Shown: piece by piece, positions 9,565 to 33,730 of the stretch | Layout: each line of letters opens with the position of its first letter | Position numbering within the stretch: position 1 is the stretch's first letter | NCBI RefSeq assembly: GCF_045037415.1 | Contig: NZ_CP173438.1 | DNA: 64,000 nt | Strand: one strand, 5' to 3' | Source of the DNA: Escherichia coli | GTDB taxonomy: Bacteria; Pseudomonadota; Gammaproteobacteria; Enterobacterales; Enterobacteriaceae | Notes under the pieces: generated by a model | Database searches by the model: none | Seen by the model: the letters and a program-made list of their open reading frames with translations, nothing else | Told to the model about the DNA's origin: nothing | Position numbers and translations under genes: made by a program

Positions 9565-9640
9565 TGGTGGCCCCTGCTGGACTTGAACCAGCGACCAAGC
9601 GATTATGAGTCGCCTGCTCTAACCACTGAGCTAAGGGGCC
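9565..9640 (-). tRNA. ileX: tRNA-Ile2 (anticodon CAU, lysidine-modified) or elongator-type tRNA with CAU
   Basis: Reverse complement GGCCCCTTAGCTCAGTGGTTAGAGCAGGCGACTCATAATCGCTTGGTCGCTGGTTCAAGTCCAGCAGGGGCCACCA folds as a cloverleaf with 7-bp acceptor stem, CAT anticodon loop, TTCAAGT T-loop and encoded CCA. Confidence 0.9.
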
Positions 9641-28383: not shown

Positions 28384-29817
28384 ATGAAAGTAACGCTGCC
28401 AGAGTTTGAACGTGCAGGAGTGATGGTGGTTGGTGATGTGATGCTGGATCGTTACTGGTACGGTCCCACCAGCCGTATCTCGCCGGAAGCGCCGGTACCC
28501 GTGGTTAAAGTGAATACCATCGAAGAACGTCCGGGCGGCGCGGCTAACGTGGCGATGAATATCGCTTCTCTCGGTGCTAATGCACGCCTGGTCGGGTTGA
28601 CGGGCATTGACGATGCGGCGCGCGCGCTCAGTAAATCTCTGGCCGACGTCAACGTTAAATGCGACTTTGTTTCTGTACCGACGCATCCGACTATCACCAA
28701 ATTACGGGTACTTTCCCGTAACCAACAGCTGATCCGTCTGGATTTCGAAGAAGGTTTCGAAGGGGTTGATCCGCAGCCGCTGCACGAGCGGATTAATCAG
28801 GCACTGAGTTCGATTGGCGCGCTGGTGCTTTCTGACTACGCCAAAGGTGCGCTGGCAAGCGTACAGCAGATGATCCAACTGGCGCGTAAAGCGGGTGTTC
28901 CGGTGCTGATTGATCCAAAAGGTACCGATTTTGAGCGCTACCGCGGCGCTACGCTGTTAACGCCGAATCTCTCGGAATTTGAAGCTGTTGTCGGTAAATG
29001 TAAGACCGAAGAAGAGATTGTTGAGCGCGGCATGAAACTGATTGCCGATTACGAACTCTCGGCTCTGTTAGTGACCCGTTCCGAACAGGGTATGTCGCTG
29101 CTGCAACCGGGTAAAGCGCCGCTGCATATGCCAACCCAGGCGCAGGAAGTGTATGACGTTACCGGTGCGGGCGACACGGTGATTGGCGTCCTGGCGGCAA
29201 CGCTGGCAGCGGGTAATTCGCTGGAAGAAGCCTGCTTCTTTGCCAATGCGGCGGCTGGTGTGGTGGTCGGCAAACTGGGGACATCCACGGTTTCGCCGAT
29301 CGAGCTGGAAAACGCAGTACGTGGACGTGCAGATACCGGCTTTGGTGTGATGACCGAAGAGGAACTGAAGCTTGCTGTAGCGGCAGCGCGTAAACGCGGT
29401 GAAAAAGTGGTGATGACCAACGGTGTCTTTGACATCCTGCACGCCGGGCACGTCTCTTATCTGGCAAATGCCCGTAAACTGGGTGACCGTTTGATTGTCG
29501 CTGTGAACAGCGATGCCTCCACCAAACGGCTGAAAGGGGATTCCCGCCCCGTTAACCCGCTCGAACAGCGTATGATTGTGCTGGGCGCACTGGAAGCGGT
29601 CGACTGGGTGGTGTCGTTTGAAGAGGACACACCGCAGCGCTTGATCGCCGGGATCTTGCCAGATCTGCTGGTGAAAGGCGGCGACTATAAACCAGAAGAG
29701 ATTGCCGGGAGTAAAGAAGTCTGGGCCAACGGTGGCGAAGTGCTGGTGCTCAACTTTGAAGACGGTTGCTCGACGACCAACATCATCAAGAAGATCCAAC
29801 TGGATAAAAAAGGCTAA
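28384..29817 (+). CDS. hldE: Bifunctional D-beta-D-heptose 7-phosphate kinase / heptose 1-phosphate adenylyltransferase (LPS core)
   Basis: 477 aa ORF with N-terminal ribokinase-like domain and C-terminal cytidylyltransferase-like domain. Confidence 0.95.
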
Positions 29818-29897
29818 CTGGAAAGCGGTTCACAGATCTCGCTTCGTAGCAGGCAGGTCTATTGACGCTGTTGTTTTTTCAACCTAAAGTAAAGGAA

Positions 29898-30045
29898 CAA
29901 GGGTAAGGGAGGATTTCTCCCCCCTCTGATGAGTTGTTAGTAAGTCGGGAAACTTAACAGTAACAACACAACCAGTATGATGACGAACTTCATCATAACC
30001 CTTTCCTTCTATAAGGCCCCTTCCTCGGGAGGGGCTTTCCCGTTT
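29898..30045 (+). ncRNA. sib: Sib-type antisense sRNA (type I antitoxin) overlapping ibs; boundaries approximate
   Basis: Located in the hldE-yqiK spacer, fully antisense to the ibs ORF; candidate promoter TTGACG-N17-TAAAGT upstream and GC hairpin plus T-run downstream. Confidence 0.5.
29937..29996 (-). CDS. ibs: Ibs-family type I toxin, 19 aa hydrophobic peptide
   Basis: Reverse strand ATGATGAAGTTCGTCATCATACTGGTTGTGTTGTTACTGTTAAGTTTCCCGACTTACTAA encodes MMKFVIILVVLLLLSFPTY preceded by an AGGAAAGG SD; matches the Ibs toxin pattern. Confidence 0.75.
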   Translation of the reverse strand: MMKFVIILVVLLLLSFPTY

Positions 30046-30235
30046 CAGCCCCTTGCTGACTCCCCGATTGTTGATGAGCGCCGGACCCCGCGCAACGCTT
30101 TCCCAGAGGCAGTTTTGCCTTCCCCGAGCAGTCACGCAAAATGCTGCAACAGCCTGATCATTTGCACCTTTTAGCGGAACGCAGATATAAAAAATCCCCG
30201 GCTTTTTGGGCCAGGGATTATTCATAGAAGAGGGT

Positions 30236-31897
30236 TTACTCTGCTTTTTCTTCGACGGGAGTTGTTGAGCTTAAGGATGAAGTCAATGCCGCCAGTGAGC
30301 CGCCTGAAACGCCAATTTCATTGAGCAAGGAGTCAATCAGCGGTGCCTGTGTGCGGTAAGAGAGTGCGGCTGATAACGCTTGTTCTGCCAGGTTTCCGCC
30401 CCCCACATTACCCGTGTTTGCATCACCCGTAGCGCCGCCACGATTCAGACCATCGACCTGAATAATTTTGATGCCGTCGATAGACTTCATAGGCTCAACG
30501 GATTTCTCAATTACCGCAGGCAGCGCCTGCAATAATGCCAGTTTGAATTTAAGGCTGGTTTGTTCATCAGAAAGTACGTTGATAGCATCGTTCAGCGCAC
30601 GTTGTGCTTCTGCTTCCGCCAGACCCTTTTTACGTGTAGCTTCGGCTAACTCAACGATAGCCGCCGCCTGCATTTCTGCGGCTTCTTTTTCTGCTTTCGC
30701 CCGCACGGTCAGTTCAACCGCTTTGGTTTCTGCATCCTGCGCTGCGGCGATCAACGCCACTTGTTTAGCACGATCGGCTTCGGCAGTCTGGCGAGTGGTT
30801 TCTACGTTTTGTTGGGCGCTTACTGCTTCTGCGAGTGCAAGGTTAGCACGCGCTTCTGCCTGGGACTGTTGTTCCGATTTGGCGGCAATAGCGATCGATT
30901 TCGTCTGGTTAGCGATTTCGGTGACCTGCTGCTGTTCGATCTCTTTAATGCGAACTTCACGTTCGGCCTCAACCTTTCTTGAGCGGACGGCCTGTTCGCG
31001 GTCGATTTCCGTTTCCTGAATCTGTCGTTCAGCCAGAATTCGCGTCTGCTCTGCTTCACGACGACGTTCAGCTTCAAAAGCCGCAATTTTCGCATTCTGC
31101 TCAGCGGTACGGGTTTTAACCTGCTGCTCCTGCTCAAGCGTCATAAACGCTTCTTGTTGTTCAATCTCCAACTTGCGCGAAAGTGCATCACGGTTTTTCT
31201 CACGCACTGCGACTTCCACATCCTGTTCAACTTCGTTACGTTCGCGACGACGGCGCTCCGTCTCCTGAGTCAGTTTGGTTAAACCTTCGGCGTCAAAGGC
31301 ATTGTTCGGATTGAAATGTTCTTTCGAGGTCTGGTTAAAGTTGGTAAGTGAAACGCTTTCCAGTTCCAGGCCATTTTTCGACAGATCTTCAGCTACGGTA
31401 TTTTGTACTCCCTGCACGAAGTTCTCGCGGGTATCCTGTAACTCATGCATGGTCATTTGTGCCGCTGTTGCACGGAGGGCATCGACAAATTTATCTTCCA
31501 CCAGCATACGTAAGTCTTCAGGCGACAGGGTGCGTTGCCCCAGCGTCTGGGCGGCGGTGGCAATCCCTTCTACTGAAGGTTTTACCCGCACAAAGAAAGC
31601 AACCACGACATCGACGCGCATACGATCTTTCGTAATCAGGCTATCAATGGTTGAGCGGCTGACTTCCAGCTTCAGGGTATTCATATTGATGGGAATTATT
31701 TCATGAAAGATCGGCATCACGATTGCGCCACCGCTCATCACCACTTTTTGCCCACTTAAACCAGTACGAACAAATGCTTGCTCTGCCGAAGCGCGACGAT
31801 AGAGCCTGGCGAAAATAATTCCAATAATAAACAGAATGCATACGGCGATAATCGCGGTAAACATCCAGGAGGGCACAGAATTAACGATATCATCCAT
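30236..31897 (-). CDS. yqiK: SPFH/band-7 (flotillin-like) membrane protein with long Ala/Glu/Gln-rich coiled coil
   Basis: 553 aa ORF; N-terminal TM helix, SPFH domain, extended low-complexity coiled-coil region. Confidence 0.88.
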   Translation of the reverse strand: MDDIVNSVPSWMFTAIIAVCILFIIGIIFARLYRRASAEQAFVRTGLSGQKVVMSGGAIVMPIFHEIIPINMNTLKLEVSRSTIDSLITKDRMRVDVVVAFFVRVKPSVEGIATAAQTLGQRTLSPEDLRMLVEDKFVDALRATAAQMTMHELQDTRENFVQGVQNTVAEDLSKNGLELESVSLTNFNQTSKEHFNPNNAFDAEGLTKLTQETERRRRERNEVEQDVEVAVREKNRDALSRKLEIEQQEAFMTLEQEQQVKTRTAEQNAKIAAFEAERRREAEQTRILAERQIQETEIDREQAVRSRKVEAEREVRIKEIEQQQVTEIANQTKSIAIAAKSEQQSQAEARANLALAEAVSAQQNVETTRQTAEADRAKQVALIAAAQDAETKAVELTVRAKAEKEAAEMQAAAIVELAEATRKKGLAEAEAQRALNDAINVLSDEQTSLKFKLALLQALPAVIEKSVEPMKSIDGIKIIQVDGLNRGGATGDANTGNVGGGNLAEQALSAALSYRTQAPLIDSLLNEIGVSGGSLAALTSSLSSTTPVEEKAE

Positions 31898-33477: not shown

Positions 33478-33730
33478 CGCTTATTCTCAGGGCGGGGCGA
33501 AATTCCCCACCGGCGGTAAATCAACTCAGTTGAAAGCCCGCGAGCGCTTTGGGTGCGAACTCAAAGGACAGCAGATCCGGTGTAATTCCGGGGCCGACGG
33601 TTAGAGTCCGGATGGGAGAGAGTAACGATTCTGTCGGGCATGGACCCGCTCACGTTATTTTGGCTATATGCCGCCACTCCTAAGACTGCCCTGATTCTGG
33701 TAACCATAATTTTAGTGAGGTTTTTTTACC
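33478..33730 (+). ncRNA. sroG: FMN riboswitch (RFN element) in the ribB leader
   Basis: Conserved aptamer segments CAGGGCGGGGCGAAATTCCCCACCGGCGGTAAA ... CCGGGGCCGACGGTTAGAGTCCGGATGGGAGAGAGTAACG directly upstream of ribB. Confidence 0.88.

Follow-up and report, generated by a model that had tools for sequence, protein, structure and literature searches.

For the K-12 family of Ibs peptides, toxicity on overproduction, in the form of membrane depolarisation or growth arrest, has been reported. The peptides are hydrophobic toxins of 18-19 residues, and it has been shown for the K-12 paralogs that an abundant Sib RNA of about 140 nt represses the cognate ibs mRNA via two independent recognition domains, TRD1, which targets the open reading frame, and TRD2, which targets the translation initiation region, after which pairing spreads and the ibs mRNA (about 160 nt) is degraded (Han 2010; PMC2943612). 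A 2025 preprint reports inhibition of the FoF1 ATP synthase by Salmonella IbsA (10.1101/2025.05.26.656083). Fozo et al. (2010; PMC2887945) reported that the number of ibs genes varies widely among strains and species, EDL933 having 6, S. dysenteriae 3 and S. boydii 7, for example, and that these genes have undergone duplications as well as losses. One example of a described arrangement is that of Escherichia coli K-12 MG1655, in which the 794-bp spacer between hldE and yqiK holds two tandem units, ibsE/sibE (b4666/b4611) beside hldE and its paralog ibsD/sibD (b4664/b4447), 375 bp apart and about 91% identical over 358 bp. Another example is strain NRG857c (B2), where the sole ibs recorded between these genes by Bustamante et al. 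(2020; PMC7232551) is "Ibs-4, homologous to ibsE", the missing ibsD receiving no comment. The ibsA/B-sibA/B and ldrABC-rdlABC loci likewise combine a small hydrophobic toxin with a cis-antisense RNA in tandem arrays of strain-variable copy number, Ldr/Rdl being a family unrelated to Ibs/Sib, and two of the three ldr copies are missing in NRG857c (PMC7232551).

The locus considered here lies in a window of 64 kb of E. coli DNA, by which we mean the whole stretch that was analysed. It is flanked by hldE (28384..29817, plus strand) and by yqiK, of the flotillin family (30236..31897, minus strand), both recognized from the list of open reading frames and from the RefSeq annotation of an identical region, and the spacer between the end of hldE at 29817 and the end of yqiK at 30236 measures 418 bp. 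The tandem array of the K-12 type, with two units about 375 bp apart, is absent from the window, which has one unit. The Rfam model SIB_RNA (RF00113) matches the plus strand at 29862..30011 with 142.2 bits (E 2.2e-29, against a gathering score of 56) and over model positions 1-147 of 147, this being the sole Sib match in the 64-kb window; the strand assignment is clear, as the opposite strand of the locus gave only 29.9 bits in a permissive Sib scan of the spacer. With this 142-bit match, with an RNA 97.2% identical to K-12 SibE, a peptide agreeing with K-12 IbsE at 18 of 19 residues, a RefSeq locus of 100% identity and the hldE/yqiK synteny, there is hardly any room for doubt that we are dealing with a single, intact type I toxin-antitoxin module, ibsE/sibE. 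The explanation taken as a whole, namely an intact ibsE/sibE module that acts by the mechanism of its family and stands alone through collapse of a tandem pair, we would give a probability of roughly 0.9. These results bear out each element of the interpretation that a sequence-only reading of this DNA had given: a hydrophobic peptide of 19 residues with a Shine-Dalgarno sequence on the reverse strand, a Sib RNA antisense to it with a plausible promoter and terminator, hldE and yqiK as the flanking genes, two tandem copies in K-12, and one copy in a spacer of about 420 bp; the covariance-model search that it had proposed as a check returned the full-length match just described.

The toxin gene occupies 29996..29937 on the minus strand (19 codons plus stop) and translates to MMKFVIILVVLLLLSFPTY, and its Shine-Dalgarno sequence, AAGGAAAGGG, is found directly upstream of the start codon, at 30008..29999 on the same strand. 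Compared with IbsA-D and IbsE, the peptide fits the pattern of the family (18-19 hydrophobic residues, MMK...IIL..LL..SF..Y). It has one difference, L4F, from K-12 IbsE (MMKLVIILVVLLLLSFPTY), and it differs from K-12 IbsD at five of 19 positions. The same peptide is annotated in RefSeq as WP_001387082.1, gene ibsE, "type I toxin-antitoxin system Ibs family toxin", in the form of a 60-nt CDS at the RefSeq locus that is 100% identical to the window locus. Among 34 units compared, from Escherichia, Citrobacter, Kluyvera, Phytobacter, Salmonella diarizonae and one other enterobacterium, the reading frame is intact and of equal length in all 34, and the Shine-Dalgarno sequence is invariant in all of them. 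The gene had also been said to be easily missed by ORF callers, and this is true for the list used here, whose minimum is 20 aa and from which the 19-codon frame is therefore absent, but not for the NCBI annotation pipeline, which does call it. A search with the NCBIfam HMMs gave no match for the peptide, which was very short and was padded to 20 aa. A toxin gene of 19 codons and an antisense RNA do escape generic lists of open reading frames, while the curated models, those of Rfam and of the NCBI annotation pipeline, recover ibs/sib reliably.

The ibs mRNA, of about 162 nt, is placed at 30060 to 29899 on the minus strand by homology to the published primers for the ibsD mRNA. This mRNA was made in vitro by Han (2010), with primers that follow the 5' end mapped by these authors (5', GTCAGCAGGGGGCTG; 3', complement of AAGGGTGAGGGAGG; PMC2943612), and the counterparts of these primers in the window are GTCAGCAAGGGGCTG, starting at 30060 on the minus strand, and AAGGGTAAGGGAGG, at 29899. 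With its ends so assigned, the mRNA is fully complementary to Sib across 29899-30040. A candidate promoter is found at 30095..30067 (minus strand), with the -35 element TTGCGC (30095-30090), a 17-bp spacer and the -10 element AACAAT (30072-30067). It is a weak one (3/6 and 4/6 matches), read by eye and below the criteria of the promoter scan, and its -10 element is situated seven nucleotides upstream of the presumed start at 30060, which is the right spacing; for ibsC and ibsD, Han (2010; PMC2943612) reports upstream promoter elements that are conserved.

On the plus strand, the sib promoter is located at 29862..29890, consisting of the -35 element TTGACG (29862-29867), a 17-bp spacer and the -10 element TAAAGT (29885-29890); it has 9 of 12 matches in the promoter scan, and its positions are included in the Rfam SIB model. 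The SibE-type antitoxin RNA is predicted to extend over 29897..30040 (144 nt, plus strand), its 5' end being an A seven nucleotides downstream of the -10 hexamer, as follows from mapping the ends of K-12 sibE via the ibsE coding sequence (in the curated MG1655 annotation, sibE is 3195240..3195097, 144 nt, overlapping ibsE at 3195141..3195200 and lying on the hldE strand). The intrinsic terminator of Sib is a hairpin at 30013..30038 (plus strand), present in both the MFE and the centroid folds and followed by UUUCCCGUUU up to 30046. It was overlooked by a simple terminator scan because its T run is interrupted, and 28 distinct units, drawn from several genera, show conservation of the hairpin. 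The predicted fold of the RNA has an energy of -51.8 kcal/mol (z -3.84), and canonical pairs occupy 98.5% of cells across the same 28 units, with stems nearly invariant and a compensatory change in one of 41 pairs. The ibs reading frame (29937-29996) and its Shine-Dalgarno sequence (29999-30008) are wholly contained within Sib (29897-30040) on the opposite strand, the Shine-Dalgarno sequence sitting within the target of TRD2. With both promoters included, the functional module spans approximately 29862-30095; the extent of 29880-30060 that had been proposed earlier covers both transcripts but cuts off both promoters.

A separate observation concerns a second, stronger promoter-like site on the plus strand, TTAACA-16-TATGAT at 29954-29981 (10 of 12 matches), that lies inside the sib gene and the ibs reading frame. 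If active, this site would start transcription near 29988 and give a short transcript of about 55 nt on the plus strand, limited to the TRD2/anti-Shine-Dalgarno stretch and the terminator, and its TATGAT may simply be dictated by the ibs codons.

When compared to the described systems, the window unit is closest to ibsE/sibE of K-12, with which it shares the position beside hldE, the strand arrangement, the -35 element of the promoter, the terminator stem and the Shine-Dalgarno sequence. The 144-nt RNA, at 97.2% identity with K-12 SibE, has an identical TRD1 region, while two substitutions are found in the TRD2/J1-7 stretch (CUAU in the window, AUAC in K-12) and one in the terminator loop. Owing to the cis-encoding of the pair, a change in the TRD2/J1-7 stretch is also a change in the ibs leader. 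The -10 element of K-12 sibE is TAGAGT, whereas that of the window is TAAAGT, as in K-12 sibD, and K-12 has the sibD/ibsD neighbour that the window lacks. K-12 ibsD/sibD is like the window unit in architecture, but SibD is only 89.7% identical to the window RNA and differs from it in TRD1; the D-side of the K-12 array corresponds to the right-hand part of the window spacer and to the yqiK flank, the D unit itself being absent from the window. The SibA/B/C RNAs, encoded at different loci, are 67-72% identical to the window RNA. The single ibs of NRG857c presents the same arrangement and the same protein, WP_001387082.1, in a spacer that differs at two of 418 positions, and over 851 bp that include the spacer, the window matches strains such as SK1144 at 100% identity, with the RefSeq gene name ibsE.

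Judged by sequence, every element needed for the Ibs/Sib mechanism is present and intact here. By this mechanism, the minus strand would produce the ibs mRNA of about 162 nt, encoding a hydrophobic membrane toxin of 19 residues, and the plus strand the 144-nt Sib RNA, perfectly complementary to it; Sib would first contact the mRNA at TRD1, inside the reading frame, and at TRD2, in the ribosome-binding region, and pairing would then spread, with translation blocked and the mRNA degraded, so that the toxin would normally not be made. We infer, by analogy with the K-12 paralogs, that expression, repression and toxicity of the window allele resemble theirs.

The arrangement with one unit is not rare. 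The complete E. coli genomes searched numbered 5,426; in 1,325 of them a spacer collinear with the single-copy spacer of the window is present (at least 80% of the query covered), in 887 of these cases at 99% identity or more, and 4,286 of the 5,426 cover a query that spans the junction between units. The junction-based census overcounts slightly, some pieces having been joined that are not collinear, and the frequency is given as a range, single-copy genomes making up about 21-24% of the complete E. coli genomes. The novelty of a single copy, implied by the sequence-only reading, is thus lost: the single-copy ibsE/sibE state is already known, being common, annotated in RefSeq as ibsE and tabulated in the literature for NRG857c. 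The difference in copy number from K-12 is a common and previously recorded polymorphism, and it matters little beyond correct annotation.

Could the single copy have been created by an assembler that collapsed a tandem repeat? Tandem units of about 375 bp that share about 91% of their sequence are in principle collapsible in short-read assemblies, but the genomes counted above as collinear with the single-copy spacer are complete-level RefSeq genomes, the independent strains S88, NRG857c and SK1144 have the same arrangement, and the window spacer falls short of that of K-12 by exactly one period (418 versus 794 bp) with both unique flanks intact, all of which makes such an artefact extremely improbable. 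A different doubt concerns not the number of units but their activity, as the locus may be viewed as an inactive relic, recognisable by its sequence but no longer expressed or toxic. The weak match of the ibs promoter and the L4F replacement relative to K-12 IbsE would favour this view. However, F4 is the commoner E-type allele at this residue and is also present in E. albertii; the sib promoter, the terminator, the reading frame and the Shine-Dalgarno sequence are all intact; the unit is 99.6% identical to the slot-1 units of two-copy genomes; and the ibs reading frame has been maintained across genera. A relic is thus very unlikely, if somewhat less so than an error of assembly.

As to the origin of the single copy, it may also be read as the original, never-duplicated state, kept in this lineage, with the two copies of K-12 being derived. 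Species-representative genomes were scanned once with a conserved 18-mer for syntenic Sib loci, and one unit was found in the hldE-yqiK spacer of four species of Citrobacter, of Kluyvera sichuanensis, of two Phytobacter species and of one other enterobacterium, and probably in Salmonella diarizonae, whose locus shows only the hldE side, a distribution that agrees with an undivided descent from a single-unit ancestor. In the same direction points the absence of a close two-copy parent of the window haplotype among the nine two-copy spacers sampled (seven of E. coli, one of E. albertii and one of Escherichia sp. E1V33), the best hybrid of slot 1 and slot 2 leaving 17 or more mismatches over the 418 bp; all occurrences of the window-type haplotype were single-copy, its best two-copy match being 96.8%. 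Against the never-duplicated reading, however, the spacers of E. albertii and Escherichia sp. E1V33 hold two units each. In a neighbour-joining tree of a 234-bp core of the units, in which all the Escherichia units group together (100% bootstrap), the window unit is not basal to the E and D types but nested within an E clade with the hldE-proximal unit of E. albertii (80% bootstrap); the other E. albertii unit falls into the D clade (49% bootstrap). The two peptides of E. albertii match the E and D types separately, the yqiK-proximal one having exactly the sequence of K-12 IbsD and the hldE-proximal one ending in LLSFPTY, typical of E. The divergence between units, of about 7-9%, is well above the 0.4-3% that separates E-type alleles within E. 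coli, and the single-copy spacers carry three different unit types, again at odds with a state that was never duplicated. The unit tree and the peptides therefore suggest that the duplication most likely occurred within Escherichia, before the split of E. coli and E. albertii. While persistence of an original single copy is unlikely in our estimate, it is probable that the single copy of the window arose secondarily, when a tandem pair older than E. coli collapsed. In such an event, unequal recombination between the units of about 375 bp would have collapsed the older pair, keeping the hldE-proximal, E-type unit; it would have removed a toxin along with its own antitoxin, with no addiction penalty.

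Inter-strain recombination blurs the history of the spacer. A breakpoint from E-type to D-type sequence, placed at 30108-30112 from K-12 alone, was rejected as not robust, since with other references (six two-copy E. coli spacers, E. albertii and Escherichia sp. E1V33) the switch moves within 29871-30220.

Variation in the spacer extends to the types of units as well as to their number. A single unit of the E type is found in this window and in CDE6306 and KY178, a single unit of the D type in 82.0311 and SC455, and a single unit of a third type, here "T", with a peptide ending in ...SFQAY, in GPEC1354, the D-type and T-type single copies occupying the same 418-bp frame as the E-type ones. The presence of different unit types in this frame fits independent collapses. 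Among the two-unit spacers, the order [E, D] is that of K-12 and of most of the two-copy genomes sampled, while [D, T] is found in Eco_23-3511 and [E, D-variant] in CM2. The third unit type encodes the peptide MMKLVIILIVLLLVSFQAY and has an RNA that shares 93% identity with SibD and 90% with SibE; this type is present in some E. coli and in Escherichia sp. E1V33 (L006 1339-1398; L010 1016-1075; L051 4117-4727) and absent from K-12. An import from sibA/B/C was considered as its source and rejected, identity being only 70-72%. In Eco_23-3511, the hldE-proximal slot is occupied by a D-type unit encoding the K-12 IbsD protein (L010 639-698) and the yqiK-proximal slot by the third type, and therefore slot position and unit type are not fixed with respect to each other. 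RefSeq gene names are inconsistent with unit type, the name ibsE being absent on the slot 1 D-type unit of this strain. A three-unit array was not seen among the best 25 matches to a synthetic E-D-T query, all of which were two-unit loci of 1230 bp, overlapping two-copy pieces outranking any divergent three-copy locus in such a search.

We offer, as a speculation that we would ourselves bet against, that the hldE-yqiK spacer may be a small recombining cassette array, in which E, D and T units are shuffled between the observed slots, two at most, and are repeatedly collapsed, so that three or more separate events, each sparing a different unit, would have led to the single-copy state. If real and undescribed, such an array would present a natural experiment on the diversification of cognate specificity (TRD1, TRD2) and on the dispensability of paralogs. 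As a variable array in which three types of unit occur, singly or in pairs, with a duplication placed before the split of E. coli and E. albertii, the spacer could serve studies of the evolution of type I paralogs.

Two further genomes may be mentioned. The genome named "E. coli" SCPM-O-B-8794, with an hldE of 92% identity, represents a divergent Escherichia lineage and carries a single E-type unit (L031 814-1047), possibly a further independent collapse. Pseudocitrobacter faecalis has two Sib-like units 276 bp apart (L032 8715-9165), with no hldE or yqiK flank detected, apparently a tandem array of separate origin in a different genus.

The spacer also contains the intrinsic terminator of yqiK, found by the terminator scan at 30219..30193 on the minus strand, a stem of 10 bp followed by TTTTATATCT, and the ibs promoter is therefore insulated from yqiK read-through. 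The terminator stretch lies within the unit that is duplicated in two-copy genomes: the duplicated unit of about 375 bp includes this sequence (30170-30218 in the window; L001 2088-2118 and 2463-2495), so that K-12 has a second copy of the terminator between its units, and the stretch 30170-30218 is invariant in all the E. coli units compared. On the other side, the terminator scan returned no terminator-like site between the stop codon of hldE and the sib promoter (29818-29861, plus strand). Read-through from hldE would traverse sib, adding antisense RNA against ibs, and would end at the Sib terminator (30013-30046), which, since no other plus-strand terminator was found, probably also serves to end hldE transcripts that read through. 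A search of 29700-30400 for repeats of at least 14 bp, direct or inverted, found none, and self-BLAST was likewise empty; a degenerate second unit in 30047-30235 was considered and rejected, with neither a repeat nor a weak Sib match there. Elsewhere in the window, ordinary RNA elements were recognized, namely an FMN riboswitch (Rfam RF00050) at 33479-33627 on the plus strand (120.9 bits), a known element, and a tRNA gene with the CAU anticodon at 9568-9640 on the minus strand (73.1 bits).
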